Assembly (NCBI GenBank): GCA_052055015.1
Contig: JBQJIT010000004.1
Length of the DNA: 22,234 nt
Reading direction: 5' to 3' (one strand)
Source: Malassezia furfur
Taxonomy: Eukaryota
Shown: in pieces, positions 959 to 22,058 of the stretch
Layout of the letters: the number at the start of each line of letters is the position of its first letter
Numbering within the stretch: position 1 is the first letter of the stretch
Position numbers and translations under genes: made by a program
Notes under the pieces: generated by a model
The model's database searches: none
Told to the model about the DNA's origin: nothing
Seen by the model: the letters and a program-made list of their open reading frames with translations, nothing else

Positions 959-2122
959 ATGTCGCAAATTATGAACCTCGACCCCCTCGTTTCTGAGAAG
1001 TTCAAGGCGGCCGTCGATGCCGGTGATGCCTTCTTCTTCGACTCGACCGTGCACATTACGGGCAACCAGGACAAGAATCTCCCGCCTATTGCTTCGGTGC
1101 CGTGGCAAGTTCGGACGGTACCTGCTCTACTCAAGAAGCCTACAGCTAGCAAAGAGGAGCCGAAGGAAGATCCGAAGGATGAAAAACCGAAGCAAAACCA
1201 GAAGGATGTGTTTGCGCCTCCCTACGTACCGAACCTTCTCGTAAAAGAGTTCACTGATTTTACGGTGCTGCTGAACAAGTATTGCGTGCTTCCCAAGCAC
1301 TTTTTGATGGTGACAAAAGGTGCGCCGCGCGACTCACCCAGACTTTGTCAACCAGGAGCTTCCGCCCTCCCCTGAAATGCTTGCGTCGGTGTATCTCGTA
1401 ATTGACAGGCATCGCGCAGAGCATCCTGAAGCGGAGTTGCTGGGGTTCTTCAACTGCGGAAAAGACAGTGGTGCATCACAGCCGCACTGTCACTTCCAGA
1501 TGGTGGAGCTGGTGCCCGAAGATTCTTCGATGGCTGTGCCGATTGAGAACCTGTTGCAGCACATTGAGCGCGATGGGAAGGAGTACAGTACGTCTGCGGC
1601 TGACATAGGCGATGTTCATTTGCTGCCCGTTCCATGGCAGCATTTTGTCGTGCTGCTTGACCCCCCGGGCGACGAGACGCAGCTCACGACTTACTTGGGC
1701 CACCGCTTCACGCAATTGCTTGACTGCATGTTTGCTGCCGCGCGGGACTTGAGTGATATTGAAAAAACAGGACCGCGTCGTGGACCACCCCAGTTCAATA
1801 TCTTGCTCACCAAGCGAGCGATGCACCTTATTCCGCGGCGCCAGGAGGGCTTTGACCTGCGTACTACTGACTGGGCCCCGTACAAGGGCGGGGAAGCGCC
1901 GGAACATACGGGCACACTCAGCGTGAATGCGCTCGGTACGTCTTCCTTACTGATGCAGGGTACGCGGGTCTCTTTTTGACGAGGCACGAAGCCGAGTTGG
2001 AGGCGATGACCGACCCTTCGAACGCACGCATTGCGCATGTACTCTCCCAGACCGGCTTGCCGATCCCAATCCAGGAGGGCGCAGAAGCCCCAGTTGCAGA
2101 CAAAAAAAAGGCCGACGCCTAG
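959..2122 (+). CDS. APA2: Diadenosine tetraphosphate phosphorylase / ATP adenylyltransferase (Apa1/Apa2 family), 365 aa, 4 exons
   Basis: Exons 959-1319, 1342-1587, 1609-1935, 1959-2122 (introns 22, 21, 23 nt) join into one open frame. Family motifs: LLNKYCVLPKHFLMVT, GFFNCGKDSGASQPHCHFQ (HxHxQ), and SVNALGYAG, which forms only after splicing intron 3. Confidence 0.88.
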
Positions 2123-2133
2123 TTTGCCATGCT

Positions 2134-3520
2134 CTACATACCTTGGAATATACGAGAAATGTTGATAAAAAGAGCCAACACCAGCACAGCTCCGCCCCAG
2201 ATTCCGAGGAAGAAGGCAGACGAGTGCAGAGTCGTGTTCGGCTCGTCATCGTACATGCGACGATACAGCAGTGCAGGAAGAATGAAGGAGATGGTCGTGC
2301 TTCCGACCGATCCGACGATGCCCAGCACGATCGACAGATCGTCGATCAGCAGGCTCACCAGCAGGCCGGCCGTCATGAGTGCCAGCGTAAGGATTGACCA
2401 TCGCCGATCGTTCACCTCATAGTGATTCACTGGGTCCATCTCGGCAGAAGTAGGGCCGAGCATGGACTCCTCTGTGTCATCCGAGGAGAGGACATTTGCA
2501 TTCACTTCGAGCATGTTGATCAAACTCGCACGGCATGGGTATAGTTGCATCGGATAGCTAGTGAGCGTCAAAGCAATCACCGACAGCTTGCCAATGCTCA
2601 CAAATAAGCTCGAAGAAGGGTACATGGCGATGATGTTGTCACCCACCTGGGCACCGAACGTTGCATATCCCACCGACGCGACCACGACGTAGACCAACGC
2701 ACTGGCACCCAGGGAAACGATCGTCACAATCGACGAGCGCTTCACGGTACTGTCCTGCAGCTCGCTGTACACGGGAAGGATGTTTTGTGCGCATGTGTAC
2801 GCAAACACCATGATGGGGAAAGTGCGGAGCACGTCGGTCGAGAAGATCACCGCGGCGATCTCTCCGCGCGGCGGAAGCGAGGCGCGTGCCGTACTCGATA
2901 GGAAGTAATAAAGCATAATCACCAGCAGGTACAAAACCGCGGCCATGTTCAGGTACCCGATCCCGCGCATCTGGTGCAGCTTCCGGTAAAAACATACGGG
3001 GCTGACCAAAGCCAGCGACACAACCACCCACAGCAGCTTGCTGAGGAAGAAGGCAGGTACCGTGTGCGCATCACCACGGATCGACTGGGCAAAGCTCAAA
3101 ACCACCTGGGGCATCAGGTGGCCACAAATCATCAGATAAGACACGCCAACGCCAAAGCACTGGGTAAGCTACAAAATCGCATACCTTGACAAAGATGGTA
3201 GCATCAAAGTACCACACCGCCGAGGGCATCACCTGGCTCGTCATGTCATAAAAGCTCTGTGGGCGTCGCTCCATGCGCACCTCGCAAAGTTTAACGAGGT
3301 GCAGGCCAAAGTTGGTCACCATGGCGCATAGCAATACCAGCACCGTACCCAACAGCCATCCCATCGTCGCATAGGCGTGCGGCAGTGCGAGCATGCCAGC
3401 ACCGATAATGGTGTTAGTCAGGCCGCTGATACTGGATAGCACGGTGGCAGAACCGGACACCTCCTCACCATCTTCGCCCAGCGCAACAGCGCCGCGGCGC
3501 TCCTGCGTCGGTTCGTGCAT
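2134..3520 (-). CDS. Vacuolar amino acid transporter (AAAP/Aa_trans family, Avt5/6/7-like), 453 aa, 2 exons
   Basis: Exons 3520-3185 and 3159-2134; 25-nt intron GTATGC...CTTACCCAG. Motifs NTIIGAGMLALPHA, FVK|CFGVGVSYL, FAYTCAQN, SYPMQLYPCR, GSTTISFILP, and many hydrophobic segments. Confidence 0.88.
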
Positions 3521-3538
3521 CGCAGCCGGGAGGAACCC

Positions 3539-3616: not shown

Positions 3617-4717
3617 ATGGCTGAGGAACATGCGGCGGAACCGCAAGAGATGGAAGAGGTCATCGGACCGCTTCCCATCAGCAAGATGGAGGTATGCCGT
3701 TATGCTGATGACAGGAATTTGGCATTTCCGCATCGGATTGCAAGAAGCTCAAGGAGGCGGGCTTCCACACGCTCGAGAGCCTCGCGTTTACCCCCAAGAA
3801 AACGCTGGTGGGGATCAAGGGCATGTCGGAGCAAAAGGTGGACAAAATTCTAAGTGAAGGTACGCGTAAGGTACTCACCTAGCCGCCAAACTGGTCCCCC
3901 TTGGCTTCACCACCGCGACTGAGTACCATCAGCGCCGCTCGGATCTGATCACGATTACCACTGGTTCTCCCGCATTGGATCTCGTGATTGGCGGTGGGAT
4001 GGAGACGGGAAGCATCACGGAGCTCTTTGGCGAGTTTCGTACGGGGAAGAGCCAGATCTGTCATACTCTAGCCGTCACCTGCCAGCTGCCGATCGATATG
4101 GGCGGCGGAGAAGGCAAGTGCCTATACATCGACACTGAAGGCACCTTCCGTCCCGTGCGTCTTCTGGCTGTTGCTGAGCGGTTTGGTTTGGATGGTGAAG
4201 AGGTGCTCGACAACGTGGCGTATGCTCGGGCCTACAACGCTGACCATCAACTCGAGCTCCTCGTACAGGCGGCAGCGATGATGGCCGAGTCTCGGTTCGC
4301 CCTGCTGATCGTCGATTCTCTCACATCGCTGTACCGCACCGACTTTGCGGGGCGCGGTGAGCTATCGGCGCGTCAGACGCACCTCGCCAAGTTCCTACGC
4401 ACACTTCTACGCCTCGCTGACGAGTTTGGTGTCGCGGTAGTAATTACCAATCAGGTCGTGGCACAAGTGGACAACGCAGGGTTTGGCGGCATGGAGACCA
4501 AGAAACCGATTGGCGGCAATATCGTGGCCCATGCGTCTACGACACGGTACGTTGCGTCCTAATCCAGTTTGTCGCTCCGCAAGGGACGCGGGAACCAGCG
4601 GATTTGCCGCGTGGTAGACTCACCCTCCCTTCCCGAGGCTGATGCTGTGTTTGCTATCAAGCCAGAGGGCATCGCCGATCCAGTAGGTGAAGCGTGCGCT
4701 GACCGCAGGACGAGTAG
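3617..4717 (+). CDS. RAD51: DNA recombinase Rad51, 335 aa, 5 exons
   Basis: Exons 3617-3691, 3715-3859, 3883-4546, 4568-4682, 4709-4717 (introns 23, 23, 21, 26 nt). Walker A GEFRTGKS, Walker [47 protein letters not shown]. Confidence 0.96.
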
Positions 4718-4768: not shown

Positions 4769-5714
4769 ATGGCGTCCGAGGCACGCAAGGGTCTCGCGGC
4801 GTTCAGTGCGCGCGATGCCGCGCCGCGCTTCCAGTCACTGTGTGCATCTACTTTTTCAGCGCTTCAGGAGCGGATACGACTCGGTCATGAGGTCGCCATG
4901 TCAACTGAGGGCAGCGAGCATGCCTTCTTGCGCACCTTCCCCTACTTTGCGCGCGATAAAACCATCACTAAGAACTTGCATACCCTGATGGATGCGCTCG
5001 ACACATGGAATGCAACGCATGCAAATGGTGACCTCATACAAAGCGACGACATACCCACGCTTGAGCAGCTTTCCGACTGGACGGCAACTGTGCACCGATT
5101 GGTGCACTTGTTGGGCGAGACGAACAACGAGTTAAATGACCCTCGTGGCTCCGAAATGCTTTCGGAACTCCGATCTGCGTACGTTTTCGTCTGACACAGT
5201 CATCCACATGTGTTTGGGCTCGATGCAAAAACCGATGGCCCGTCTGACACCGCGCCGACACCGTCCGCCGCCGAACCTACCGAGCTAGTGGAGCGGCTGC
5301 CTGCGTCGCATCTCCCGCGCACCAAATTGATGTCCCACGTCGGCTCGATGCCATCGACGGGATTTGCACGCGACGAGGACGACGACCGTTTTGCCGCCCA
5401 GCAGCTCGCGCAGCAAAACATGGCATTCCGCCAGCAAGACACGCATTTGGACCATCTAAGTGCCTCCATCTCTCGGCAGCATGAGCTGAGTCTACGTATG
5501 AATGAGGAGCTGGAGCTCCACACTGATCTCCTACACGAACTCGACCGAGACGTTGATGACACAGGTCTGCGGTTGGGTGGCGCCAGCGACCGCCTCGAAC
5601 GTTTTCGGCGGAGCGTCAAGGAGCATGGTAGGTCACGTTGCTCACGCAGGCTCCGTATGGGTCATCTTCGTGCTAATTTTCGTGTTGGTCCTACTCATTT
5701 CGCTATTCAAGTAG
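4769..5714 (+). CDS. SYN8: Syntaxin-8-like Qc t-SNARE, 300 aa, 3 exons
   Basis: Exons 4769-5178, 5200-5627, 5650-5714 (introns 21, 22 nt). SNARE motif [34 protein letters not shown] has H at the zero layer as in fungal Syn8; the C-terminal TM anchor [18 protein letters not shown] joins only after splicing. Confidence 0.82.
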
Positions 5715-5721
5715 CAGGGTA

Positions 5722-6782
5722 TCATGCGTCAGTGAGCGGACAGCACTGGATTATTCCTCCCACCTACCAGGAATTCAACAAACGCATGGCCTGACGCGGC
5801 GACTGTGAGGGGTGCCGCGTTTCGTGGCATAGTCTGGGCATGGTGGCTTGCGATCATGAACTGAACGCTCAGCATCCCGTTATCGTCGATGCGCAGTGAC
5901 GTCTTGAGTGACGTCTTGATCGCCTGCAACATGTACGCAACGCATTGCAGTGGGTATGAACACGCGACCGACTCGACACAGTCAAACTTTTCCGTAAGTT
6001 GGTTTTCGTTCGGGAAGGAGATCTGGGTGAGTCGTAGACATGCCTCGGTGCTACCATGACTGTTTTCGGTGCTTAGGTCGAGCCCGCCGCGCTCGGTGCG
6101 CCCTTTGCGGGGATGAAAATGGATGTGCACTTGGGTTTCGCCGCCCGCATCGAGCTCCTGAAACGCACGCGCAAGATGCTCCGACTGAATCAGAAGTAGA
6201 CGCACCTTCATGATAACTTGTGCGACGGTCGCCTCGGGCGAGAACTGCAGGTCCGGAACCATACTCGAATCGAGCGTGCGCAGCCGAAAGTTCATGTCGA
6301 TGCGGCTCGTGTGTAGTCCAACGCTAAGTGGCTCACCAAAGTCCCGGTATGTGATTTCGACATAGTCACCTCGCCGGCGCGCATCCATACCCCGCGAATC
6401 GCTTGCATGCATGCGGCCTTCGAACAGCGTCAAACATTGTACCATCGTCGACACGTTGAGTTCGAAGCTTATATAAGGCTGGGCATCCTCGTCATCGCTG
6501 TCATCCCGATTCGCCAGTTCCATCCAGTTTCTCGGCGGCACGAACGTGTATTCATCAAAAATGGACGCGTAGAGGTAGGCGTGCGCTGCGTCAGCCAGCG
6601 TACCTACCCTGCACAGCCTTGTTCATCTCCGATACCACCTCGAGACCGGACGAGGAGATGGATACAGTCGCGAACTGGGTAAGAATGCCACGTACTGCCG
6701 TGAAGTTAACCGCGCGCAGCATGGCCGTCAGCATCGATGCGTCCGCGACGCGCGCATACAACACGCCGCGCGCCGTGGTCAT
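5722..6782 (-). CDS. RAD1: 9-1-1 checkpoint clamp subunit Rad1/Rec1/Rad17, 317 aa, 6 exons
   Basis: Exons 6782-6696, 6674-6608, 6585-6206, 6184-6044, 6022-5768, 5745-5722 (introns 21, 22, 21, 21 with GC donor, 22 nt). Rad1-like segments AVQAHAYLYASIFDEY, KTSLRIDDNGMLSVQFM and FVEFLCCP. Confidence 0.88.
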
Positions 6783-6843: not shown

Positions 6844-7915
6844 ATGGCCTCGTCGCAAGCACCGCAGAAGTCGGCGCCGCTGACGTGCCACGGGCACACG
6901 CGACCCGTGGTACACTTGGAGCACTCTGAGAAACAGGATGACGGGTCTTATCTGTTGCTGTCGAGCTGCAAAGACGGGAACCCTATGTACGTGGCATCTC
7001 TCTCACACAGGCTTCGAGACTGGCTGGGCGACTGGATCGGCACCTTCTTGGGTGCGTGTGTGCCACTAACGCAGGTCACAAGGGCGCAGTCTGGAGCGCC
7101 AAGCTCTCTGGAGGAGATGCGGCGCGTGCTATCACTGGGAGCGCCGATTTTTCCGCAAAAGTGTGGGATACGTACTCGGGCGAATGTGTACAGACCTTCA
7201 CGCACAACCACATTGTGCGAAGCGTTGCCGTGAACAGTGCTGGCACGCAGATGCTTACGGGTGGTCATGAGAAAAAATTGCGCCTGTTCGACCTGCAGCA
7301 CATAAAGGGAAACTCCGCGGAGGATGCACAGGTATTTGCTCCGAGGTTGGGATCCGATGACGGCACGACACACAGTGGAACCATTCGCAGTGTCGTGCTA
7401 GGCCGCGGAACTAGTGGAGCAGAGAATGTGGTGGTGACGGCTGCCGAAGACAAGTGCATCCAGTGGTGGGATGTGCGGACGATGCAGCCCGTCTACGAGT
7501 TGAATCTCGATGAGCCCTTTTCGTCGATGGAGCGCTGTGCAGGTGTCTATGGCGAGTACATCACCATTACTGCCGGCAATCAAGCGATGTTTTTGGACCT
7601 GATGACGTGCGTAAATGCCGCACTGACCACAGACACGAAATCGTGAGGCAGCACACGCTTGACATTGCGCCATCATCTGTGTACTTGCACCCGACCAAGG
7701 GCGACAAATTTGTTGCTGGGTGCAGTGCAGATGAGTGGGTGCGCGTGTATGACTTTGAGACGGCCAAGGTGCTAGACCTGAGCAAGGGACATCATGGCCC
7801 CGTCCATTGTGTAAGCTATGCACCCGATGGCGAAGTTGCTGCCAGCGGCAGCGAGGATGGTACGATCCGTCTGTGGCAGACCAATCCCGGAACCAAGTAC
7901 GGCCTCTGGTCGTAG
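6844..7915 (+). CDS. STRAP: STRAP/UNRIP-like WD40 repeat protein, 332 aa, 4 exons
   Basis: Exons 6844-6986, 7011-7051, 7075-7606, 7633-7915 (introns 24, 23, 26 nt). PLTCHGHTRPVV, SSCKDGNPMLRD, GDWIGTFLGHKGAVW, GHHGPVHCVSYAPDGE, SGSEDGTIRLW and the YGLW C-terminus are typical of STRAP. Confidence 0.9.
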
Positions 7916-8140: not shown

Positions 8141-9074
8141 ATGAGTTTGTCCAATACCTCCCCCCGGACAGAAAGCAAGGCGATGGCACGCCGGTTTCAG
8201 TGCCCGTATGAGCCATGCACCAAGTCGTTCGCCCGGCAGTCAGACTTGAACAGGTACGCTACCCGCTCATGTTAGACACGTCCGGATCCATACCAACGAA
8301 CGACCGTATGCATGCGCATATCCTGGATGCAACAGACGGTTTGTGCAGAGCAGCTCGCTTCGCGTCCACCTCAATGTTCACACGGGCGCACGTCCTTATA
8401 CTTGCGAGACTTGTTCGCGAGCCTTTAGCGACACGAGTTCGCTGTCACGGCATCGGCGCTCCCATACGGGCGTGCGTCCATACAAATGCGAGTTTGCAGG
8501 GTGTGACAAAGAGTTTTGTCGTCGCACAACCTTGCGACTCCACGTCCAGCGCGACCACGGCGAAACCTCATCGCCGTGGCCATGCAGCGACAGCGCACAG
8601 GCTGATCCCTCCGGGATGCCGCAAGCGCAGACAATGCAGTACAGTGCGCCTGTGCCTTACAATGCGTCGCAGCTCCTGGAGGACAACCTGGTATTCCCCA
8701 CGTGTGGTCAAGCTCAGGCACCTAGCGCGCCCGTGCACGCTCATCTCTCCGAGCGCCGCGTCGGGTCCCAGCCCGCACCGCTCCTTGTAACTCCGCCCCA
8801 AGCGCAGCTTGCACCGCAAACATCACTCTCTTCGATGTACGACGTGAGCTCATTACAATCGGCCATGTGCCTGAGCGCGCTGTCGTCGCCCGAGTGTTGG
8901 AGCTCGCCGGTAACCCCCGGTTTTCCGCTAACGCCCGTCACGGCTGCTTCCGCGCCGGTTGAACCGCCCAAGCATACGAGTATGCAAAATCAATTTCTGG
9001 ACCCGTGTACATGGTCAATGCCATTCGTACTGCATGGCGATGCGTCGCACTATGCCTCACACGTTTTTCTGTAG
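8141..9074 (+). CDS. C2H2 zinc-finger transcription factor (4 fingers, Pro/Ser/Gln-rich C-terminus), about 303 aa, 2 exons
   Basis: Exons 8141-8253 and 8276-9074; 22-nt intron GTACGC...CTCATGTTAG inside finger 1. Linkers HTNERPY, HTGARPY, HTGVRPY. The start could instead be the downstream ATG (MARRFQC). Confidence 0.87.
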
Positions 9075-9259
9075 TCTGTCGTTCGTTCCTAGTGTTGCTT
9101 TCACTCTGCCTCCACATATGCGCGTCGGGGCTCCAGCGACGCGTTGGTGCGCACTGATTTGGCTCAGTGGGCTGCACGTGAGCGAAAGTGACACAAGCCG
9201 CGGATACAGCCAGCCAAACGCGTCGGCTGCCCACGCATTCGTCTTCCGCCTGACCCGCG

Positions 9260-12200
9260 ATGATCGATGCCCAGGTGCCGCCCACGGGCCCTGCGGCTGG
9301 CGGTGCGGAGGACGAGCTGGCTACTCAGCTGTGCCACCGCTACTACCAAGGGATCTTTTATACCCAAATCCAGGAGAGTGTGTTGGTGGTGCTCAACCCC
9401 TTCCACACGCCGGTGGATGTGAATGGTGAAGAGACGCTGCGAGAGTATTGCCGCGCGTACCGTGACATGCGGTACACGACGAGCGACCGCAGCGTTCCGC
9501 CACATATCTTCCGTACGGCATCCGATGCCTATTTCTACATGCAGCGCACCGGCCAGGATCAAGCGCTCTTTTTCCTTGGCGAAACGGCGAGCGGAAAAAG
9601 CGAGGCACGTCGCCTTGCTGTGCGCGCAATTGTGGCACTCTCTGTGGCACTTCCCGGGAAGCGTGGCGCGCGACTTGGAGCGCAGTTACCAGCGGCGCAG
9701 TTCGCCATGGAGTGTTTTGGGAACGCCGAGTCGGACGAGAACCGTAATGCGTCCGGCATGGCGCTTTATTCCGAGCTGCAGTTTAGCAAAAACGGGCGAC
9801 TGGTCGGTATGAAGATGCTCAACTACTACCTTGAGCGCAGCCGGGTGTCGCCGCTACGCAGCATGGAGCGCACCTTCCACGTATTTTACCTGTTGATTGC
9901 CGGTGCCTCTCCCGAGGACCGCAACCGCTGGCGGTTTGACGATGTCCCGAGTTTCCGCCTGCTCACTGCGGGCGGCCGCGGTGCGCCGGTCAGCAGTGCT
10001 GAACAACTGGCTGGGCGGTACGCGCGCCTGCTGCATGCGCTCGACGTCGTCGGCATGCCGCCGGTGCAGCGCGCGGCAATGCTGGATGTGCTCGCGGCAA
10101 TTCTGCACCTGTCCAATTTGGACTTCGTGCGCGACAGCGGTCCCCACACGGCGGCACGCGTCACGTCTGAAGAACCACTGTATATTGCTGCGTCGTTGTT
10201 GGGCGTCGGTGCGAGTGCACTGGCGAATGCGGTGACGCACCTGACCAAAGTCGTGCGCGGCGACCTTTGCACCATTATGCTCGATGCCAATGGCGCTGCC
10301 GCGAACCGGGATGCGCTTATGCGCATGCTCTACTCGCTGTTGTTTGCGTGGCTGAATGAATTCCTTAACCAACACCTGTCCAGCGACCAGTTCCACGCGT
10401 ACATCGGTCTGCTCGATACGCCAGGGTGGACAAACCGTGTGCACAACTCGCTCGATCAGTTCGCGGTTAACTTTATGGCGGACACCGTGCATCGGCACAT
10501 GGCCGCGACGCTGCTGGAGCGCCGCACGGATGAGATGGACCGCGAAGGACTGTCGCACATGGCGCCGCTGCCCGTCGCGGCGGACGAGGCCGAGAGGCTT
10601 CGTCTGCTGACGCACTTCCCCGGCGGCCTGGTACACATCATGGACGACCAGACGCGCCGGCGTCCGCGCAAGACGGACGAGACGATGGTCACAGCGATGC
10701 AGAGGCGTTGGGTGAACCACGCGGCACTGCACATCGACACGTCCGACTCGCTAGGCCCCCCTTCGTTTGTCGTGACCCACTTCCACAGTGAGGTGTCGTA
10801 CGACCCGCACGCGTGGTTGGAGCGCAACGACGAGTCGTTTGCTCTGGAGCACGTATCGTTGCTGCGCGGCGCTGACCGGTCCCCCGACGGCACGACAGGG
10901 ATGGGCTCGTCGAACGCGTTTATCCGCAACCTGTTCAAGACTGCGGCGGTCTGGACGCAGCTGCCGATGCCCGACGGCGCCAATTTGCAGGGTACGCAGG
11001 CGGCGCTGCGTCCCCTGCGCGCCCCGTCAACAATCCGTGCACGGCGCAACGGCACGCTGCGGGGCGCCGCGTCGGGTCGCGCGCGCGACACCGACGCCGA
11101 CGAAGACACGTACGGGAGTGACCTGCAGCGTACGCCGGCCGTCGCGAAGCATGAGATGCCGTGTGTGCTGGGCGAGCTACAGAATGCGCTCGGCACGCTC
11201 ATGGAGGTCGTCGACGACGCTAAGCCGTGGTTCGTGCTGTGTGTGCGCCCCAACACGAACCAGCTCGCGAACCAGTGTGAGGCGCGCATGGTGCGCCGAC
11301 AGACGCACGCGCTGGGCCTTGCGCGCCTGCGTCACGGCCACGCGCGCGACTACAGCGTGACGCTGACCTATACCGAGTTCTGCGACCGGTACGGCACGTT
11401 GCCCGGTCTCGACTCGCTGCAGTTGCTGGGTGCGCCGAGTGCCGAGGCCAAGATGCGCGTGAGCGATGCATGTGCACTGATGAACTGGACCGATGCCTAC
11501 GTCGCAATGGGCATTCACAAGGTCTTTTTGTCGCATGACGTATTCCGCGAGCTAGAGGACAGTTTGCGCCAGCGCGACCCCGAAGAGGTGCAGTATACGC
11601 TGCGAAAGGCGGCCGCGGAAGACGACACGCCCGTGCAGGACGAGCCGTACTCGCCGTACATCGATGCGCCGCACGCGCCCGAGGACCTGCCGAACCCGTT
11701 CGAGGTGGTGGACGCGCCCCCGGCCGCCGCCTTTACGTATGCAGGCGAAGTCGACGCTGAAGAAACGCACAGCCTGTTGCAGCGCGATGCTGCCTCAGAA
11801 AAGGGGTGGGCGGACGAGTCCGTGTTTATGGACGACGCGCTGGATGCCGGCCCGGGCGACACTGGGACGGCCGATGGGCCGCGGGTCACCGAGAAGCTGC
11901 GCGTCTCGGCACTGCGGCGGCACTGGGTGGCATTAACGTGGTTGTTCACGTGGTGGATCCCGTCGCTGGTGCTGAAGCGGTTCAAGCGGTTCAAGCGGTC
12001 GGACGTGCGCATGGCGTGGCGCGAGAAGCTGCTGATCAACATGATCATCTGGTTCATCTGCCTGTGCTCCATCTTTGTAATTGTGTTTTTGGGCAACGTG
12101 GTGTGCCCGACGCAGCACCTATACAGCACCACGGAGCTGTCTGGCTACAAAGGCAAGCATGCATACACGGCGATCCGTGGCGAAGTGTTCAACCTGAACG

Positions 12201-15076
12201 GCATCATATCGGGCCACCGCGCAGCGATCCCCGTCATCTCGAGCAAGACGCTGCAGCAGTATGCGGGCACCGACGCGACCAACATCTTCCCTGTCCAGGT
12301 CAACGCGCTGTGCAACGGCGTCACGGGCAGCATCTCGCCCTGGGTCACGCTCGACAACAACAACAACACGGACGCCAACGCCCAGTACCACGATTTCCGT
12401 GCGTACCGTGGCGTGGATGTACGCCCCGACTGGTATTACGAGCAGATGTGGTACATGCGCAGCCGCTTCCGTGTGGGGATGATTGGGTACACGCCCAAGG
12501 AGATCGACAACGCCAAGCAGGACGGCCGGACGCTCGCGGTGTACAACAAGGAGATTTACGAGATCACCGACTACATCTCCCAGGGCAACCAGGGCGGTGT
12601 GCTGGTGCCTGACGGCATGGCGCCCCCACCCAACCTGGACCGCACGATTTTGGCCCCAGAGATTGTGAGTCTCATGGCACAGAACCCCGGGGCAGATATT
12701 ACGCAGCAGCTGGACCGCCTGCCGCTCGATCCAGCAGTGCTGGGCCGGCAGCGTGTGTGTTTGCGCAACCTGTACTTTATCGGGAGGCTCGACGAGCGCA
12801 ATTCGGCTCGGTGCACCTTTTCCAAGTACATCCTGCTCGCGCTCTCGGTCATTATGGTTGCTACCATCGGTTTCAAGTTCTTTGCGGCGCTACAGTTTGG
12901 CGGCGCGCGACCACCAGAGGAGCAAGACAAGTTTGTGATCTGCCAGGTGCCGTGTTACACCGAGGACACCGACTCGATCCGTAAGACGGTCAACTCGCTG
13001 GCCAAGCTCAAGTACGACGACCGGCGCAAGTTGCTCATCCTCGTCTGTGACGGCAATATTGTGGGCGCGGGCAACGATGCGCCCACGCCACAGCTCGTTC
13101 TTGATTTGCTCGGCGCTGACACAAGCCAAGAGGCGGAGCCGTACAGTTTTGTGTCGCTTGGCGAGGGCAGCAAGCAGCACAACATGGCGCGTGTCTACAG
13201 CGGACTGTACGAGCACGCCGGACATATGGTACCATACCTGGTGATCGCCAAGTGCGGACGCCCCACTGAGACCACCAAGCCGGGCAACCGCGGGAAGCGC
13301 GACTCGCAGCTGGTGCTGATGCGCTTTTTGAACAAGGTGCACTTCGGTCTACCCATGTGCCCGCTCGAGCTTGAGATGTACCACCAGATCAAGAACGTCA
13401 TCGGGGTCAACCCGTCGTTCTACGAGTACATCCTGCAGGTGGACGCCGACACCGAAGTCGAGCCCACGGCGCTCACGCGCATGGTCGCAAGCTTTGTGCA
13501 CGACAAGAAGATCATTGGGTTGTGTGGCGAGACGGCCATATCCAATGAGCAACAGAGTCTCACGACGATGCTACAGGTGTACGAGTACTACATCTCGCAC
13601 CACATGGTCAAGGCGTTTGAAAGCCTGTTTGGCTCGATCACCTGTTTGCCGGGGTGCTTCTCCATGTTCCGCATCCGCACGCCGGACACACAGCGCCCGC
13701 TATTCATCGCCAATAGCGTGCTGGAGGACTACTCGGAGAACCGTGTCGATACCCTGCACCTCAAGAACCTGCTGTACCTCGGTGAGGACCGCTACCTTAC
13801 TACGCTTGTGCTCAAGCACTTCCCGGACTACAAGACGGTATTTGTGCGCCATGCACGCTGCACCACCACCGTGCCGGACAGCTGGCGCGTGCTTCTCTCG
13901 CAGCGGCGCCGTTGGATCAATTCGACCGTGCACAACCTTGTCGAGCTGCTGCGCACTCCGCAGCTGTGTGGTTTCTGCTTGTTCTCAATGCGCTTCGTCG
14001 TGATGCTAGACCTGCTCTCGACCATCATTGCACCGGTAACGATTGGCTACCTCGTTTACCTCGTCGTGGTGGTCTCGGTGGATGGCGGTACCATCCCGCT
14101 CACTTCCATCATGCTTCTCGCGGCGATCTACGGCCTGCAGGCGATCATCTTCCTGCTGCACCGCCGCTTTGATATGATCGGATGGATGGTGGTGTATATT
14201 CTCGCACTGCCTGTCTGGTCTCTCATCCTCCCGCTCTATTCCTTCTGGCACATGGACGACTTCTCGTGGGGCAATACGCGTATCGTCACCGGGGAGAACG
14301 GTGAAAAACTGGTGGTGCACAACGAAGGTACCTTCGACCCCGCTGAGATCCCGCACATGACCTGGGAAGAGTACGAAAACGGCCTCTGGGAGAACCGCAC
14401 GGGCGTCTCCGACCCCGAGGCGTTTGCGCGCCACGTGCCAATGAGCAAGTCGACGCGTGCGCTACTCCAGCGCAACCCGAGCCTGTACGGGTACGCGTCG
14501 CACCCCGTGCCAGAGTACACGGAGCCGGAGGCGATGTACGCCAGCTACTACACCGACGAATCCGACCCGCGTCTGTCCAAGCCTCCACTCGACGAAGCTC
14601 CAGACGCGTCGTGGGGTGCGCACGAATCCGTCTCGCTACTCCCTCGCGGCGGTGGCTACGACATGGCACCGTCTGCAAAGCGGCCCTTCAGCCTCGCAAC
14701 CTACAACCCCTCGTCCGTGGGACACGGCACCGAGTACAAGGACGACGCCTATGGTCTCGATCCGCCACATGCCGAGCCGCTCATCGACACGCATCCGGCG
14801 CCGATGCAGCCGAGCGCGTACACCTATGAGTCGGCTGCACCGGCGCCTGCGTCCGTGCCTGCAACCCCTCCGACATTCGCCGAGGCGCGGCGAAACCGAC
14901 TGCCGCGTGATGAAGTGATCCGCTATGACATCCGGACGATCATTGCGCACAGCGATCTGACGACCGTCACCAAGCGACAGGTGCGCAATCAGCTCCAAGA
15001 ACGCTATGGGTGCCCGATTGACGAAAAGAAGGCCTACATCAATGCGCAGATCGAGGCGGCGCTGCGCGACGTGTGA
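9260..15076 (+). CDS. Chitin synthase with N-terminal myosin motor-like domain (class V, Mcs1/CsmA type), 1938 aa
   Basis: Single long ORF. Myosin-like head (PPHIF, P-loop GETASGKS, NYYLERSRV, ERTFHVFY), cytochrome b5-like region (AIRGEVFNL), GT2 motifs QVDADT, GEDRYLT and QRRRW (13901-13915), WHMDDFSWGNTR, and a C-terminal DEK_C-like domain. Confidence 0.96.
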   Translation: MIDAQVPPTGPAAGGAEDELATQLCHRYYQGIFYTQIQESVLVVLNPFHTPVDVNGEETLREYCRAYRDMRYTTSDRSVPPHIFRTASDAYFYMQRTGQDQALFFLGETASGKSEARRLAVRAIVALSVALPGKRGARLGAQLPAAQFAMECFGNAESDENRNASGMALYSELQFSKNGRLVGMKMLNYYLERSRVSPLRSMERTFHVFYLLIAGASPEDRNRWRFDDVPSFRLLTAGGRGAPVSSAEQLAGRYARLLHALDVVGMPPVQRAAMLDVLAAILHLSNLDFVRDSGPHTAARVTSEEPLYIAASLLGVGASALANAVTHLTKVVRGDLCTIMLDANGAAANRDALMRMLYSLLFAWLNEFLNQHLSSDQFHAYIGLLDTPGWTNRVHNSLDQFAVNFMADTVHRHMAATLLERRTDEMDREGLSHMAPLPVAADEAERLRLLTHFPGGLVHIMDDQTRRRPRKTDETMVTAMQRRWVNHAALHIDTSDSLGPPSFVVTHFHSEVSYDPHAWLERNDESFALEHVSLLRGADRSPDGTTGMGSSNAFIRNLFKTAAVWTQLPMPDGANLQGTQAALRPLRAPSTIRARRNGTLRGAASGRARDTDADEDTYGSDLQRTPAVAKHEMPCVLGELQNALGTLMEVVDDAKPWFVLCVRPNTNQLANQCEARMVRRQTHALGLARLRHGHARDYSVTLTYTEFCDRYGTLPGLDSLQLLGAPSAEAKMRVSDACALMNWTDAYVAMGIHKVFLSHDVFRELEDSLRQRDPEEVQYTLRKAAAEDDTPVQDEPYSPYIDAPHAPEDLPNPFEVVDAPPAAAFTYAGEVDAEETHSLLQRDAASEKGWADESVFMDDALDAGPGDTGTADGPRVTEKLRVSALRRHWVALTWLFTWWIPSLVLKRFKRFKRSDVRMAWREKLLINMIIWFICLCSIFVIVFLGNVVCPTQHLYSTTELSGYKGKHAYTAIRGEVFNLNGIISGHRAAIPVISSKTLQQYAGTDATNIFPVQVNALCNGVTGSISPWVTLDNNNNTDANAQYHDFRAYRGVDVRPDWYYEQMWYMRSRFRVGMIGYTPKEIDNAKQDGRTLAVYNKEIYEITDYISQGNQGGVLVPDGMAPPPNLDRTILAPEIVSLMAQNPGADITQQLDRLPLDPAVLGRQRVCLRNLYFIGRLDERNSARCTFSKYILLALSVIMVATIGFKFFAALQFGGARPPEEQDKFVICQVPCYTEDTDSIRKTVNSLAKLKYDDRRKLLILVCDGNIVGAGNDAPTPQLVLDLLGADTSQEAEPYSFVSLGEGSKQHNMARVYSGLYEHAGHMVPYLVIAKCGRPTETTKPGNRGKRDSQLVLMRFLNKVHFGLPMCPLELEMYHQIKNVIGVNPSFYEYILQVDADTEVEPTALTRMVASFVHDKKIIGLCGETAISNEQQSLTTMLQVYEYYISHHMVKAFESLFGSITCLPGCFSMFRIRTPDTQRPLFIANSVLEDYSENRVDTLHLKNLLYLGEDRYLTTLVLKHFPDYKTVFVRHARCTTTVPDSWRVLLSQRRRWINSTVHNLVELLRTPQLCGFCLFSMRFVVMLDLLSTIIAPVTIGYLVYLVVVVSVDGGTIPLTSIMLLAAIYGLQAIIFLLHRRFDMIGWMVVYILALPVWSLILPLYSFWHMDDFSWGNTRIVTGENGEKLVVHNEGTFDPAEIPHMTWEEYENGLWENRTGVSDPEAFARHVPMSKSTRALLQRNPSLYGYASHPVPEYTEPEAMYASYYTDESDPRLSKPPLDEAPDASWGAHESVSLLPRGGGYDMAPSAKRPFSLATYNPSSVGHGTEYKDDAYGLDPPHAEPLIDTHPAPMQPSAYTYESAAPAPASVPATPPTFAEARRNRLPRDEVIRYDIRTIIAHSDLTTVTKRQVRNQLQERYGCPIDEKKAYINAQIEAALRDV

Positions 15077-15123: not shown

Positions 15124-16247
15124 TTAGCGCATGATTTCTTCGTAGATCAATCGTTTCAGCTCTTCACGCGACAGCGGCGCCTTGGCCGAGTCGGCATCAA
15201 AGAAGCTCGGGTCCAGCGGCTCGGCGTCCGGCTCGTCATTGGGGTCGTGATAGGGCTCAAGGTAGGGATGGGCTAGCGCGTCTTCCACAGTGATGCGCTT
15301 CCGAGGCGAGAACTCGAGGAGCCGCTCGAGCAGGTCAATGGCAAGCGGGTCGGCATTCGGGAAGAGTGTCGCAAAGTTTTTGCGCTTGCAGAAGGGGAGG
15401 GAGCGGATGTAGTCCCGCGACCGAGCCGAGTTGATCGCATAAAAGTCGTCCAGCGACGGAGTGCCCAGCACTTCAAGGATCAGTGACAGCTGGTGGTGGT
15501 AATCGCGTCCGGGGAAGAGCGGGCGGCCCGAGAGCATTTCGGCGAAGATGCAGCCAACGGACCAGAGGTCGATGGCCTTGGTATATTCCTTGAAGGTAAG
15601 CATGATTTCCGGCGCCCGGTACCACCGTGTCGCAACATATTCCGTCAGGAACGCCTTGCCGTCCGGCTCCGGCTGGTCCGCACTGCGTGCAAGACCAAAG
15701 TCGCAAATCTTCAGGTCGCAATTGGCGTTCAAGAGCAGGTTAGTCGGCTTCAAGTCGCGGTGCAAAACGCCCGCCGAGTGCAGCGCCTTGAGGCCACGCA
15801 GGATTTGATAGACAAAGTATTGATAATGGTCATTGGATAGATTCTGCGTCCGGATCACGCGATGCATGTCCGTCTCCATAAGCTCCTGGATGAGGTGCAC
15901 TTCGGTAAACGACTCGAGCGACGCGGGCCGAACGATGTCGAGAATGGAGATGATGTTCTCGTGGTGAAAGTGGCGCAGCAGCCGGATTTCCCGCAGTGTG
16001 CGCAGGCAGAACATCTGATGGTCAAACGGCGAGATGCGCTTGACAGCGACGCGCGTGGACGTGGGCAGGTGTACGGCCGAACTGGGTGAGCAATAGACCA
16101 ACGTACTACACCACGCCGTAGGCGCCCTCGCCCACGGTCTTGATCAGGCGGGCGGTATGTTCCGCCCAGCTGTGGTCCTGCAGTACCATCTGTGGTCGTC
16201 GGTGCGACGGAGGTCGCGCCCGCACGCGTAGGGTCGACGTTATTCAT
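15124..16247 (-). CDS. MAP kinase of the Fus3/Kss1 (Kpp2/Ubc3-like, TEY) class; exon 1 carries an apparent 4-bp frameshift
   Basis: Exon 2 is 16081-15124; 25-nt intron 16106-16082. Motifs [60 protein letters not shown] 16247 is out of frame because GCGG is duplicated at 16148-16155; ATG 16189 is in frame (346 aa). Confidence 0.9.
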
Positions 16248-16522: not shown

Positions 16523-19090
16523 ATGCCACAGGCCTATGCGCTATCGCAGCAGGGGGTAGGAGCTAATGCTCATCCTCGTCGCCCTCCATCAACCTGGTCA
16601 GCTGCATCCAGGGACAATCATGATGGGGCCGACGATCGTGTGAAGTACTCCCACTCAGGGGTCAACATCCTCGACATTCTCACGCGCGTGAGCCAGCGCA
16701 GCTCTCCGCAGGTGAGTTTGGGGCCGGTGGATATGACTTGCGCGATGAGCGTTGCACGTGTTTCTGTCAACAACGCATCCCGCATGCTACAGATCGAATA
16801 CGGGGATGTTAGCGACGAGTTTTTGCGGCTCGTGGGACAGACGCGCGATCGTGTCGTAGGCCAAGAGCCTGGAAATGTACTCCCATGTGCCAACTATGAG
16901 GTGCAGCGCGTGCGCCGAATGTACGCGGCAGCAGCGAATGGTGTAGAACAGCAGGCGGTGATGGAGCTGACAGGTCCCAAACAGCAAACATTCTATGTGC
17001 TCATGACGTTGATTCCGCTGCGATACACGGGTCGCCGAGATCATCGCGCAATTTCTCGCGGCATTGAGTGGATTGTGGGCTTTCAGGCGGAAGTGACGCC
17101 GGGTGACCTCCCACACATGCTAAGTCTTATCCACAACAGCCAAGGACCGTTGGACCCGTTGGAGCCGCAGAAACTCGCCAAGGAGTCGCCAAGCAAGCCC
17201 CCGCCTCCCGAGACCTCGCATGAATGGCATGACCTCGTGGCCGAGACAGGTGATGCGGGGACCGTGTACTTCGTTACCTGGCATGACGTCCTACAATATG
17301 TCTCAGCGTCCGTCGAAACCCAACTTGGCTACCGCGCCGACGAGCTAATCGGCAAGCCCGTGGAGGAGCTGTGTCATCCAAACGACATGGTTGCGCTCTT
17401 CCGTGAGCTCAAAGGGATCAAGAACAAGACGGGCAAAATGCCCAATGCCCGTGCGCGATTTCCAGTCAAGCCTGTGCGCCTCGACGAGAGCGTATCACAG
17501 CACATGATCCTCGCTGAGGTCAATGGCCTGCTGCGTTTCAAACACAAGACTGAGGGGCTTATCTGGATGGAATCATCGGCGCGCCTTGTGCAGCAGCAGG
17601 GCGCTCCTGGACGACGGGCGCGCTCGGTAATTGCTGTTTCGGGATGGCGTCACAAAAATCCGATGGCGTCTCAATCGGATCTACTCGACGGAAAGAGAAT
17701 GGCCAATTCACCCAAGGTCGTGCAGGCCCAGGTGATGCAGCTTGCACAGGCGCAACAAGCACAAGCCAAGCAGGCACAGATACAACAGACACAACAGACA
17801 CAGCTGCAGCAGGCACAGCTACGACAGGCACAGGTTCAGCAGGCACAGGCTCAGCAGGCACAGGCCCAGCAGGCACAAACCCAGCAGGCACAGGCCCAGC
17901 AGGCACAGGCTCAGCACGCCGCCGACCAGGCCAAGCACGCTGCCATGCAAGCACAGCAGGCTGCCCAGCAAGCGCGACGTGTACAGGAGGTGCAGCACGC
18001 ACAGCACGCACAGCACGCACAGCAGATGCAGCGTGTCGAACAAGAGCGCGCTACGCACTCGCGCTCGGCGTCGATGGAGAACAAGGCCCACCCCAATCTG
18101 CCCTTGTGGCTGACACTTTCGGCCATGGGTCTGATTCTGCAGTGCTTTGAGCAGACCGACGCCGACACGGTGCAGCCTGTGGACGAGCCCGAGATCCCTC
18201 TGCGGATTGGTTTTGTGCTTCCGAATGTGATGCAGCAAGAGGTCATGCTCCAGATCCAGAAGGCATTTATGCATGGCGCAAAGCAGCCCGTGAGCATCGC
18301 TACATGGATCTCCAATACGCCCGTGATCACCACCTGGATTCCGCTCTCGCCGGAGCTTACGAGTCCGTCGCTGGAGCAGATGGGTGTGCAGATGTTGGTG
18401 CGTTTGGACATTTGCCGCAACGGCTTTGATCGTGCGCCGCATCGGCTCTTTTCCCCGGACGAGGCGTGGTTGACGGTGCCTTCGGGGTTGCGGCAAAACG
18501 GCCCAGAGGAGGCGACGTTGGAGCCGACCGCCCCGACGCTTGCGTCCTTCGATATGGGTCCCTCGCCCTCGCAGGTATCTGACCGGTCGTCGTCCGTGGT
18601 CAGTGGCCAAAACTTTTTCCCATGGGGCTCCAGCGATGAGGCCTGGTCGCAATGGTCACACTTTCGCGGACCCAGCGCTGAAGAACCAGATCCGCTGACA
18701 CCTGGCTCAATTTCATCGTTACTGTGGAACATCAGTTCAACCAGCGACACAGGGATGGACACCGACGGTGGACAGAGGACGCCGACGTCGGTACCGATGC
18801 AAGGCGCTAGAACGCGCGACGCCGACTTGTCGCAGTATACATCGCACTTTTCGGCGCCGCTTGCGGCGGGGATGAACACGGCCGCGCCGCTCGTCGGCAT
18901 GCCTCTCAATGAGTTTTTAACCCAAAGCGGGCTAACGCCGATCCCGTCGGACAGCCTGCCGGGCGCAGAGAAGAATTGGTCCGCGGAGATGTTCCCAGTG
19001 TCGATGTCGTCCAATGCGCCGTCGCACTACATCTCGGACACCTCCCAACATCAAGCGCAGTCGCATGACTTCGGTTTTTGGCCCTACTAA
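16523..19090 (+). CDS. White collar-1-like protein with degenerate LOV domain, PAS domain and Gln/Ala-rich repeat, about 855 aa
   Basis: WC-1-like pre-LOV cap ([33 protein letters not shown]), LOV-like core ending WIVGFQ, and PAS segment [39 protein letters not shown]. No GATA finger, as expected for basidiomycete WC-1. First ATG at 16523. Confidence 0.75.
17740..18030 (+). repeat. Coding minisatellite: 15-nt CAGCAGGCACAGGCY units (QQAQA), then 9-nt CAGCACGCA units (QHA)
   Basis: Directly visible tandem units at about 17806-17915, and QHA x3 at about 17993-18019. Confidence 0.85.
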
Positions 19091-21388: not shown

Positions 21389-21505
21389 ATAGAAGAAATG
21401 GCCAAGTCTGCCGTAGCTACGGAAGAACGCCATTTCGCGACACGACCGTGCGCCGCGCCGGCACGGCGCCGCACCTGCGCGCCACACGGTGCGAGGCGTT
21501 TTCGT

Positions 21506-22058
21506 TTACTTGCCCTGAGGAGCCTCCTTGAAGGCGAGCGCGTGCTCCTCGTTCATGGCCGCAACGATGGTGACCATGAGGTCCTTGCCCTCCTCGAAGG
21601 CCTCGTTGATCTGCTCGCCGAGCTCACCCTCGGGCAGCTTGACGTCGTCCTTCGACGTGCCGTCGTTCGACATCAGGTTCAGGTAACCGTCGTCGATGTT
21701 GATCAGCTGGTACTCGCGACGGGTCACGTTGGGCACCTCCATGTTGTGCGTCGAGGGCGAAATATCCTCGTACTTACGGTTGGTGAAGATGTCGGTGGCG
21801 ACCAGGTGCACCTTGGCGTGACCGTGCTTGCCCGTCTTCGAGGTCGACATGTCGATGATCTGGGGTGAGCGAGTGTGGGCAAACGCACCTTGCAGGGGCG
21901 GCCCTTGATCACCACATGGCCGTTCTTGCGGAGCGCCGAGCACTGCTGGGGGTAGGTCAGCGAGGCACCGGCGTGGGCGGTCTCGAAGTTGACGTTCTGG
22001 GTCTCGTCGTCAGACTGAAGGGTTAGCCGCACTGCGTTTCAGCAGGCCTACGCACCAT
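21506..22058 (-). CDS. TIF51: Eukaryotic translation factor eIF5A, 160 aa, 3 exons (first coding exon is only the ATG)
   Basis: Exons 22058-22056, 22014-21889, 21859-21506 (introns 41, 29 nt). Hypusine motif [39 protein letters not shown]. Confidence 0.96.

Follow-up and report, generated by a model that had tools for sequence, protein, structure and literature searches.

Nine genes of Malassezia furfur are interrupted by 20 GT-AG elements which, from their sequence features, are in all probability (we would put it at about 0.93) genuine major-type (U2-dependent) spliceosomal introns that have shrunk near the physical minimum. They were placed in a single stretch of DNA of 22,234 nucleotides, referred to here as the window (Table 1), in which the first intron begins at position 1320 and the last one finishes at 22055. 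Five introns are 21 nt long, four are 22 nt, four 23 nt, one 24 nt, two 25 nt and two 26 nt, and single introns measure 29 and 41 nt; the median is 23 nt, and 19 of the 20 do not exceed 29 nt. A RAD51 exon matches NCBI M. furfur proteins with 100% identity, and the host is the Malassezia nuclear genome.

A preliminary description of the same DNA had reported 22 introns in nine genes over exactly this span. The nine genes and the span stand and every length class in its list was recovered, with the count reduced to 20 placeable introns; one 21-nt and one 22-nt intron in that list, given without coordinates, could not be located. Its example, 1588-1608, reads as it was written in length, branch motif and position of the A, and its reading of the whole set as ultra-short spliceosomal introns with a minimal layout agrees with the U2-type signals seen in 20/20.

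Table 1. Gene models and introns placed in the window ("Branch A" is the position of the presumed branch A within the intron)
Feature	Coordinates	Strand	Length	Branch motif	Branch A	Remarks
Gene A, ATP adenylyltransferase (Ap4A phosphorylase, APA2-like)	959..2122	+	365 aa			3 introns
Gene A intron	1320..1341	+	22 nt	CTCAC	17	5 nt to end
Gene A intron	1588..1608	+	21 nt	CTGAC	16	multiple of three, stop-free
Gene A intron	1936..1958	+	23 nt	CTGAT	18	
Gene B, amino-acid transporter (Aa_trans)	2134..3520	-	453 aa			1 intron; Pfam PF01490 on both exons
Gene B intron	3160..3184	-	25 nt	CTTAC	20	
Gene C, RAD51	3617..4717	+	335 aa			4 introns; final coding exon 9 nt
Gene C intron	3692..3714	+	23 nt	CTGAT	17	6 nt to end
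Gene C intron	3860..3882	+	23 nt	CTCAC	18	
Gene C intron	4547..4567	+	21 nt	CTAAT	16	in-frame TAA
Gene C intron	4683..4708	+	26 nt	CTGAC	20	6 nt to end
Gene D, tail-anchored SNARE-like protein	4769..5714	+	300 aa			2 introns
Gene D intron	5179..5199	+	21 nt	CTGAC	16	in-frame TGA
Gene D intron	5628..5649	+	22 nt	CTCAC	17	
Gene E, Rad1/Rec1 checkpoint clamp subunit	5729..6782	-	329 aa			3 introns
Gene E intron	6185..6205	-	21 nt	CTGAT	16	multiple of three, stop-free
Gene E intron	6586..6607	-	22 nt	CTGAC	17	
Gene E intron	6675..6695	-	21 nt	CTTAC	16	multiple of three, stop-free
Gene F, STRAP-like WD40 protein	6844..7915	+	332 aa			3 introns; 41-nt micro-exon (7011-7051)
Gene F intron	6987..7010	+	24 nt	CTCAC	19	multiple of three, stop-free
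Gene F intron	7052..7074	+	23 nt	CTAAC	18	
Gene F intron	7607..7632	+	26 nt	CTGAC	20	6 nt to end
Gene G, C2H2 zinc-finger protein	8141..9074	+	303 aa			from ATG at 8141; 1 intron
Gene G intron	8254..8275	+	22 nt	CTCAT	16	6 nt to end
Gene H, class V-type chitin synthase with myosin motor	9260..15076	+	1938 aa			intronless (contrast)
Gene I, Fus3/ERK-type MAP kinase	15124..16189	-	346 aa			1 intron; PDB Fus3 2b9f, E 1.1e-127
Gene I intron	16082..16106	-	25 nt	CTCAC	20	
Gene L, eIF5A	21506..22058	-	160 aa			2 introns; first coding exon consists only of the ATG
Gene L intron	21860..21888	-	29 nt	CTCAC	23	6 nt to end
Gene L intron	22015..22055	-	41 nt	CTAAC	33	8 nt to end

Uniform splice signals

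The consensus layout of the 20 introns is GTRNGY, 6-13 nt, CTNAY, 1-2 nt and YAG; the 41-nt intron deviates from it, with a 23-nt spacer before CTNAY and 4 nt between CTNAY and YAG. All 20 start with GT and finish with AG. Donor position 3 is invariably a purine (14 A and 6 G), position 4 is usually C (15 introns, against three with G and two with T), position 5 is G throughout and position 6 is always a pyrimidine (T in 15, C in 5); every donor thus fits the basidiomycete-style GTNNGY with its conserved G at +5. CTNAY is likewise present in each intron, and the acceptor is always YAG (17 CAG and 3 TAG). The presumed branch A lies 5 nt from the intron end in 14 introns, 6 nt in five and 8 nt in one, and never closer to the 5' end than position 16. 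Between it and the AG there are 3-4 nt, or 6 in one intron. With only 3-6 nt separating the two, a polypyrimidine tract would not fit, and the preliminary description had likewise remarked on its absence. Such tracts are typical of animals and plants and are not a defining feature of fungal introns. Minor-type (U12) introns are marked by RTATCCTT as an extended donor and by a branch site resembling TCCTTAAC; ATCC at +3 to +6 occurs in none of the 20 donors, all of which have G at position 5.

We scanned both strands of the window with the pattern GTRBGY-N6-13-CTNAY-N1-2-YAG. This returned 19 sites, all of them introns of our models and all in the sense orientation of the gene concerned, and 300 dinucleotide-preserving shuffles of the window gave a mean of 0.42 matches and a maximum of 4. 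The count of 19 is partly circular, because the pattern was derived from these same introns; the lack of extra matches is not.

Reading frames and conserved junctions

For each of the 20 introns there is support beyond the splice motifs, and excision of all of them leaves open frames. Fourteen junctions are colinear with orthologs (four in RAD51, three each in STRAP, ATP adenylyltransferase and Rad1, and one in the MAP kinase, compared with Fus3), and the other six are backed by Pfam continuity, a restored motif, a removed stop or a supplied start codon. Pfam profiles bridge the junctions at 4547 (Rad51, 205 to 207), 6185 (Rad1, 153 to 154) and 21860 (IF5A-like_N, 25 to 26); at 3160 the Aa_trans profile stops at 87, with 7 exon-1 residues left, and resumes at 95 with the first residue of exon 2. 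Retention leads to a premature stop or a frameshift in 16 of the 20, in keeping with the earlier claim that most of the introns restore the frame.

Exons of the ATP adenylyltransferase gene match Pfam Ap4A_phos_N and ATP_transf, and its orthologs carry the same name. Both the 1320 and the 1936 intron cause a premature stop when retained, and each junction is colinear in 5/9 aligned proteins. At 1320 the others comprise an annotated relative with an 8-aa insert, a divergent protein and two proteins that begin downstream. At 1936 a 90%-identical relative has a read-through insert of 7 aa (21 nt), and coding sequence would not tolerate the resulting 2-nt difference in length between relative and window. 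The transporter intron, too, yields a premature stop upon retention.

RAD51 (Pfam Rad51, E 2.4e-106) was aligned with 10 proteins, of which 8, 9 and 8 are colinear across its first, second and third intron, respectively. The fourth lies 6 nt upstream of the stop codon. Once spliced, the protein ends 2 residues past the conserved DP, and 7 orthologs stop 2-6 residues past it; unspliced RAD51 ORF calls of relatives extend 60-100 residues further.

Ortholog alignments covered Genes A, C, E, F and I, and the two introns of the SNARE-like gene lie outside them. The latter gene had no Pfam match at E 0.01, and its name is therefore a reading of the sequence. Retention of its first intron, which fits the specific donor-branch-acceptor pattern, introduces a stop; retention of the second shifts the frame, and its removal gives the protein a C-terminal hydrophobic anchor of ~20 residues and then a stop. 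In the Rad1 gene, aligned with 10 proteins and matching Pfam Rad1 on exons 3 and 4, the 6586 intron gives a premature stop when retained and is colinear in the 5 well-covering proteins, with a 10-aa insert in one protein. Orthologs of the STRAP-like gene carry the name serine-threonine kinase receptor-associated protein; its third intron, again with a premature stop upon retention, is colinear in 8/10, the remaining 2 differing by 1 residue in a variable loop.

Premature stops also follow from retention of the zinc-finger, MAP kinase and 21860 introns. Excision in the zinc-finger gene (Pfam zf-C2H2 and zf-H2C2_2) restores the first finger, C-x4-C-x12-H-x3-H. In the MAP kinase, exon 1 contains the glycine loop, and the first whole codon in exon 2, that of residue 29, pairs with residue 29 of Fus3; the 27 residues of exon 1 gave nothing meaningful in PDB, and the junction was tested via exon 2. 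The eIF5A gene matches Pfam IF5A-like_N and eIF-5a as well as an eIF5A in PDB. The donor of its 41-nt intron abuts the ATG; the sequence preceding exon 2 contains an in-frame TGA but lacks an ATG, and the fourth residue encoded by exon 2 pairs with residue 3 of the solved eIF5A.

Introns that keep the frame open

Four of the 20 introns (1588, 6185, 6675 and 6987) are stop-free multiples of three to which frame-based checks are blind, and they therefore rest on the ortholog alignments. We considered whether they might instead be translated lineage-specific insertions of 7-8 residues, or introns retained so often that protein isoforms result. Their retention indeed leaves the frame open, and ORF-based calls from the window and from a relative contain the inserts (P0241, P0243, P0252). 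The 7 residues of 1588-1608, however, are absent from 7/9 aligned proteins, and the two calls that have residues there are unspliced ones, the window's own and that of the 90% relative. The relative's 7-aa insert moreover differs in sequence although the flanks are nearly identical, and the NCBI M. brasiliensis model splices out the equivalent element. The window's own ORF call also includes a 7-aa read-through of 6185-6205, which is lacking in 8/10 aligned proteins, these being colinear across the junction. For 6675-6695, all 3 informative proteins, those with a matching N-terminus (P0255, P0258 and P0259), are colinear without gaps, and 6987-7010 is missing from 10/10 orthologs within a strongly conserved stretch. 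Furthermore, all four elements fit the full donor-branch-acceptor pattern, which is free of false matches in the window. We thus regard the insertion or retention reading as improbable and treat the four as introns; because they keep the frame open, some retained-intron protein isoforms are possible.

Public gene models and longer introns

The real introns might also be longer ones with splice sites further away, as public models have it, in which case the 21-23-nt versions would be artefacts of motif hunting. Three longer introns do reproduce public M. furfur models exactly: 3692-3747 (56 nt, in place of 3692-3714) and 3854-3882 (29 nt, in place of 3860-3882) give the RAD51 model P0001, and 7052-7089 (38 nt, in place of 7052-7074) gives the STRAP model P0121. 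These choices nevertheless delete 11, 2 and 5 residues (the last being GHKGA) that are kept in 8/10, 9/10 and 9/10 aligned proteins, distant fungi included. Both public RAD51 models, in addition, read into the 21-nt intron at 4547 and terminate there, whereas orthologs run ~40 conserved residues further, and the short-intron model recovers these residues. We consider the longer introns very improbable; the preliminary description had named them among the outcomes that would refute its reading.

That description had also expected gene finders to mis-model these genes, as the 56-, 29- and 38-nt introns and the skipped 21-nt one confirm. The errors in the public models of these conserved M. furfur genes arise from introns of 21-23 nt that the predictors either avoided or failed to see, and users of the M. 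furfur proteome in orthology, drug-target, allergen or phylogenomic work inherit such errors.

Assembly errors, pseudogene lesions or ribosomal frameshifting or bypass sites can be dismissed almost entirely: that 16 elements break the frame is the one observation in their favour, and against them stand the uniform signals (GT, AG, G5 and CTNAY at a fixed distance in 20/20), the sense orientation of all 20 elements, the essential or conserved host genes (RAD51, eIF5A and MAPK) and similar elements at the same codons in relatives.

Short introns in Malassezia and other eukaryotes

Very short introns are already known for the genus Malassezia, as the preliminary description had noted. The curated M. 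sympodialis set comprises 5350 introns with a mean of 30 bp, 99% of them supported by RNA-seq (Zhu et al. 2017, PMC5389616 Table 2), and M. restricta introns have a mean of 37.2 and a median of 30 bp (PMC9241646 Table 1). In this literature, Malassezia genomes are described as compact, at 7-9 Mb, and "containing very short introns," and annotation needed a minimum intron length lowered to 15-20 (Zhu et al. 2017, PMC5389616; Cho et al. 2019/2022, PMC6473144, PMC9241646; review, PMC7426719). A typical length of ~30 bp or less holds in the M. furfur window as well, with a lower median, 23 nt. The text passages on M. sympodialis and M. restricta give lengths, but neither a lower limit nor the geometry of donor, branch and acceptor. 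Our literature search found neither M. furfur-specific intron statistics nor a statement on short introns in this species, and no description of the anchored-branch architecture or of the apparent 21-nt floor; the M. sympodialis length distribution is available only as a graphic (Supplementary Fig. S8), outside a text search.

According to passages of Irimia and Roy (2008, PMC2483917), most fungi are without a polypyrimidine tract, and in Yarrowia lipolytica, Trichomonas vaginalis and Giardia lamblia the branch motif is in addition fixed near the terminal AG, as it is in M. furfur, where the A lies 5-6 nt from the end in 19/20 introns. The introns of those three species are long overall (median 204 nt in Y. 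lipolytica), in contrast to the 21-29 nt of M. furfur, and their branch motif is stricter, ACTAAC or CTAACA, whereas the third position of CTNAY is free. Ustilago maydis, a relative of Malassezia, is given there a median intron of 95 nt and a weak branch consensus (PMC2483917). Introns below 30 bp with GT-AG ends and scant polypyrimidine tracts, like those of M. furfur, are described for ciliates (15-16 bp in Stentor), microsporidia, dicyemids and myxozoans in passages of a 2026 paper (PMC13644364). The branch signal of myxozoans and dicyemids is a weak run of A, unlike the strong CTNAY found here in 20/20, and Malassezia does not occur in that paper's list of taxa with introns below 30 bp. 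Unlike ciliates or obligate parasites, Malassezia is a culturable, transformable yeast (PMC5654937; review, PMC7426719). These properties, together with introns whose signals are strong and countable, make it well suited for testing minimum donor-branch and branch-acceptor distances.

Possible consequences for splicing

Judged by motif and position, the A of CTNAY would be the branch point, which would make the smallest lariat loop 16 nt. The acceptor would be the first AG, 3-4 nt past the branch A, probably picked by its proximity rather than through a polypyrimidine tract. The 21-nt minimum among the 20 introns of this one window may reflect a lower limit of ~15 nt between donor and branch A. 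About 14 of the 21 nt are specified in the shortest introns. In the yeast and human scheme, U1 and the U2-associated factors each cover more RNA than such introns offer, and early recognition would have to differ in detail from that scheme. A bolder version, which we put forward tentatively and think somewhat doubtful, is a hard geometric limit (branch A at least 16 nt from the 5' end and 5-6 nt from the 3' end) that would rule out the usual simultaneous footprints of U1, the U2-associated factors and the 3'-site factors, together with a modified early assembly and second-step pathway. If this were true, Malassezia would become the first genetically tractable yeast model for spliceosome handling of ~20-nt introns.

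Rejected candidates and other regions of the window

Within the range, 9147-9167 was the sole remaining 21-nt candidate whose donor was good. It was not accepted: situated 5' of the chitin synthase gene, it has a branch-like A 10 nt from its 3' end and does not connect coding segments. The intergenic candidate 16228-16250 joins no exon. Looser scans brought up alternates nested inside real introns (7056/7058-7074 and 6586-6603) and antisense matches (4362-4382, 11477-11500 and 20318-20341), while 9751-9775 and 8644-8672 would frameshift long open genes. As far as the two further introns of the preliminary description are concerned, looser scans of the window gave only such nested, antisense, frameshifting or exon-less matches. 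An upstream exon of the PAS gene, starting at the ATG at 16333, would need an intron of 22, 25 or 28 nt, and none was credible by eye.

ORFs in region 1-958 had no Pfam match, and six-frame reading of this region shows no convincing gene; Rfam gave 0 matches on the whole window. The closest JGI-sourced proteins reach at most 81% (RAD51), 50% (STRAP) and 40% (ATP adenylyltransferase) identity, and Malassezia DNA is therefore unlikely to be present in JGI metagenomes. The density in the window is 20 introns per ~19 kb of coding sequence, with three long genes having none. The intronless chitin synthase gene, a contrast to the intron-bearing ones, carries Myosin_head, Chitin_synth_2 and DEK_C (Pfam) within one open frame.

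Twenty very short introns in nine genes

Excision of 20 short GT-AG segments yielded uninterrupted reading frames in nine genes of the window (A, B, C, D, E, F, G, I and L), which contains twelve in all. The introns measured 21 (×5), 22 (×4), 23 (×4), 24, 25 (×2), 26 (×2), 29 and 41 nt, with a median of 23 nt. The preliminary description had counted 22 introns in nine genes; 20 of these were recovered, including its example at 1588-1608, which is exactly as described, but one 21-nt and one 22-nt intron, claimed without coordinates, were not. Looser scans of the window for two further introns gave no acceptable candidate: the matches were nested alternates within real introns or antisense, lay in long open genes where splicing would cause a frameshift, or, in two cases, were intergenic and joined no exon.

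Genes of the window
Gene	Product	Coordinates	Strand
A	ATP adenylyltransferase	959-2122	+
B	Amino-acid transporter	2134-3520	-
C	RAD51	3617-4717	+
D	Tail-anchored SNARE-like protein	4769-5714	+
E	Rad1	5729-6782	-
F	STRAP-like WD40 protein	6844-7915	+
G	C2H2 zinc-finger protein	8141-9074	+
H	Myosin-chitin synthase	9260-15076	+
I	Fus3/ERK-type MAP kinase	15124-16189	-
J	PAS-domain protein	open frame 16232-19090	+
K	Sel1-repeat protein	19268-21388	+
L	eIF5A	21506-22058	-

The third RAD51 exon (3885-4544) was 100% identical to two NCBI Malassezia furfur proteins and 96% identical to a protein of Malassezia sp. CBS 17886, and the STRAP-like gene matched an M. furfur protein at 100%. The window is therefore M. 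furfur nuclear DNA, or that of a near-identical strain. The three longest genes (H, J and K) have no introns in ~10.5 kb of coding sequence, and the nine shorter genes have 20 in ~8.8 kb. The coding exons include an internal 41-nt micro-exon in the STRAP-like gene (7011-7051), a first eIF5A exon consisting of the ATG alone (22056-22058), and a 9-nt last RAD51 exon comprising two codons and the stop (4709-4717).

Ortholog alignments and protein profiles support the boundaries

Spliced models were built from the coordinates by script and aligned with orthologs, and 14 junctions were tested in this way. RAD51 junctions 1-4 were colinear in 8, 9, 8 and 7 rows of an alignment with 10 proteins, the colinear rows spanning Ustilago, Tilletia, Cryptococcus, Schizosaccharomyces and Pneumocystis; the discordant rows were two public M. 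furfur models and one unspliced open reading frame (ORF) call. The three STRAP junctions were colinear in 10, 9 and 8 rows (10 proteins), and the micro-exon, flanked by 24- and 23-nt introns, codes for a portion of a segment whose conservation extends from Malassezia to ascomycetes. For the three ATP adenylyltransferase junctions, colinearity was observed in 5, 7 and 5 rows (9 proteins), and the remaining rows came from ORF calls made without splicing, from truncated models or from an annotated relative carrying an insert of 8 residues. For Rad1 (10 proteins), the first junction was colinear in the 3 rows whose N-terminus matched, and the other two in 5 and 8 rows. Residue 29 of the MAP kinase model, where exon 2 has its first complete codon, aligned with residue 29 of yeast Fus3.

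When exons were scanned one by one, Pfam profiles continued across junctions, from position 205 to 207 for Rad51, 153 to 154 for Rad1 and 25 to 26 for IF5A-like_N; Aa_trans ended at 87 and resumed at 95, with seven residues between. In the zinc-finger gene, intron removal restored a C-x4-C-x12-H-x3-H finger. The 41-nt eIF5A intron starts immediately 3' of the ATG; upstream of exon 2 there is an in-frame TGA and no ATG, and the fourth residue of this exon aligned with residue 3 of a solved eIF5A. The two introns of the SNARE-like gene are the least tested of all: the first contains an in-frame TGA, and excising the second recovers a hydrophobic anchor at the C-terminus. With their sequence and placement so defined, these excisions restore the conserved proteins exactly. 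The original observation is real, and its interpretation as introns is right.

Intron anatomy and specificity of the pattern

Donor positions G1, T2 and G5 were invariant (each 20/20), with A (14) or G (6) at position 3, C (15), G (3) or T (2) at position 4, and T (15) or C (5) at position 6. A CTNAY motif was present in 20/20 introns (CTCAC 6, CTGAC 5, CTGAT 3, CTTAC 2, CTAAC 2, CTAAT 1, CTCAT 1), and the acceptor was CAG in 17 and TAG in 3. Fourteen introns have the CTNAY adenosine 5 nt from their last base and five have it 6 nt away; for the 41-nt intron the distance is 8 nt. This adenosine lay at position 16 from the 5' end in six introns and closer in none. A 21-nt intron is thus composed of donor (6), spacer (6), CTNAY (5), one base and YAG (3). 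A polypyrimidine tract would not fit, and the intron G+C content (56%) is near that of the window (60%).

The pattern GTRBGY-N6-13-CTNAY-N1-2-YAG had 19 matches on both strands of the window, all 19 of them model introns on the sense strand of their own gene, and 300 dinucleotide-preserving shuffles contained on average 0.42 matches and at most 4. Since the pattern was derived from the same introns, the informative part is that no other match occurs in 44 kb of sequence. Spacers of 0-5 nt matched only nested alternates inside real introns, which would break the frame if used.

Introns that evade reading-frame logic and mislead gene models

Retention of 16 introns, taken singly, would end the frame prematurely or shift it. 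The other four, at 1588 (gene A), 6185 and 6675 (gene E) and 6987 (gene F), are stop-free and a multiple of three in length, and would pass any open-frame check. Two of them appear as 7-residue inserts in ORF-based protein calls from the window's own sequence (P0241 and P0252). Their status as introns is argued from insert-free orthologs and splice signals.

Protein sequences of relatives give hints here. P0243, an unspliced ORF call with 90% identity, has a 7-residue insert of differing sequence where gene A has its 21-nt intron, and a 7-residue (21-nt) insert where this gene has a 23-nt intron. Such a 2-nt difference between close relatives would be permitted in an intron and excluded in coding sequence. 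Among four RAD51 relatives compared as proteins only (P0003, P0004, P0006 and P0007), three (95-97% identity) ran without a break through the sites of introns 2 and 3, and one (89%) had two in-frame 9-residue inserts at sites that are intron-free in M. furfur. Both inserts start with VR and finish with Q, as would the reading of a GTNCGN...CAG intron. This suggests, as a lead, that close Malassezia lineages differ by RAD51 intron gain or loss.

The preliminary description had warned that gene finders would mis-model such genes, and three public proteins thus make this a fact for the present locus. P0001 (CBS9595_001544) is reproduced exactly by a RAD51 model whose introns are 3692-3747 (56 nt) and 3854-3882 (29 nt); with the third intron left unspliced, it ends within the 21-nt intron. 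P0002 ("RecA recombinase Rhp51", M. furfur) has introns 1 and 2 as in our model and also ends within the 21-nt intron. These public RAD51 models, mis-spliced or truncated at 21-23-nt introns, have 286 and 299 aa, compared to 335 aa here. P0121 (M. furfur CBS9595_001541) is residue for residue a STRAP model with intron 7052-7089 (38 nt) instead of the 23-nt intron 7052-7074; it has 327 rather than 332 aa, lacking five residues that the other nine aligned orthologs keep.

Possible splicing mechanism and known context

The CTNAY adenosine is probably the branch point, in which case lariat loops may be as small as 16 nt. On the 5' side of the branch site, the U2-associated SF3a/b proteins contact ~20 nt, and budding yeast can do without the second-step factors Slu7 and Prp18 when branch and acceptor lie very close together. 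If these general points hold, both intron ends would lie in regimes that strain the textbook assembly order, and it is on this that the preliminary description's idea of a possibly modified spliceosome is based. The acceptor may simply be the first AG, 3-4 nt downstream of the branch adenosine, as happens in other lineages whose branch site is anchored (PMC2483917).

Very short introns are already known for the genus Malassezia, and a review names them as an acknowledged feature (PMC7426719). The curated M. sympodialis annotation lists 5350 introns with a mean of 30 bp, 99% of them RNA-seq supported (PMC5389616, Table 2); M. restricta introns have a mean of 37.2 and a median of 30 bp (PMC9241646, Table 1), and this species was annotated with a minimum intron length of 15-20 (PMC6473144). 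In contrast, the median is 95 nt in U. maydis (table in PMC2483917) and the mean 63 bp in C. neoformans (PMC8476143). The taxa named as having introns of <30 bp in a 2026 study of the shortest introns of animals are ciliates, microsporidia, dicyemids and myxozoans; Malassezia is not mentioned there (PMC13644364). In the literature outside subscription journals, we found no description of donor-branch-acceptor geometry or of a length floor in Malassezia. The window contributes a clean, quantified account of how M. furfur introns are built, specific errors in public gene models, and examples of introns undetectable by reading-frame logic.

Other features of the window

Positions 1-958 have a G+C content of 49%, compared to about 60%; six-frame reading of this segment gave no convincing open frame and Pfam no matches. 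Gene H encodes a class V-type chitin synthase of 1938 aa with myosin head, cytochrome b5-like, chitin synthase 2 and DEK_C domains. Two genes away, the Sel1-repeat protein ends in a CaaX-like CIIC, and presumably resembles chitin synthase activators of the Skt5/Chs4 type. The PAS-domain gene has its first in-frame ATG near 16523 and another ATG, out of frame, at 16333; the middle of the protein (17700-18080) contains a long low-complexity stretch rich in glutamine and alanine, with AQ/QAQ repeats.
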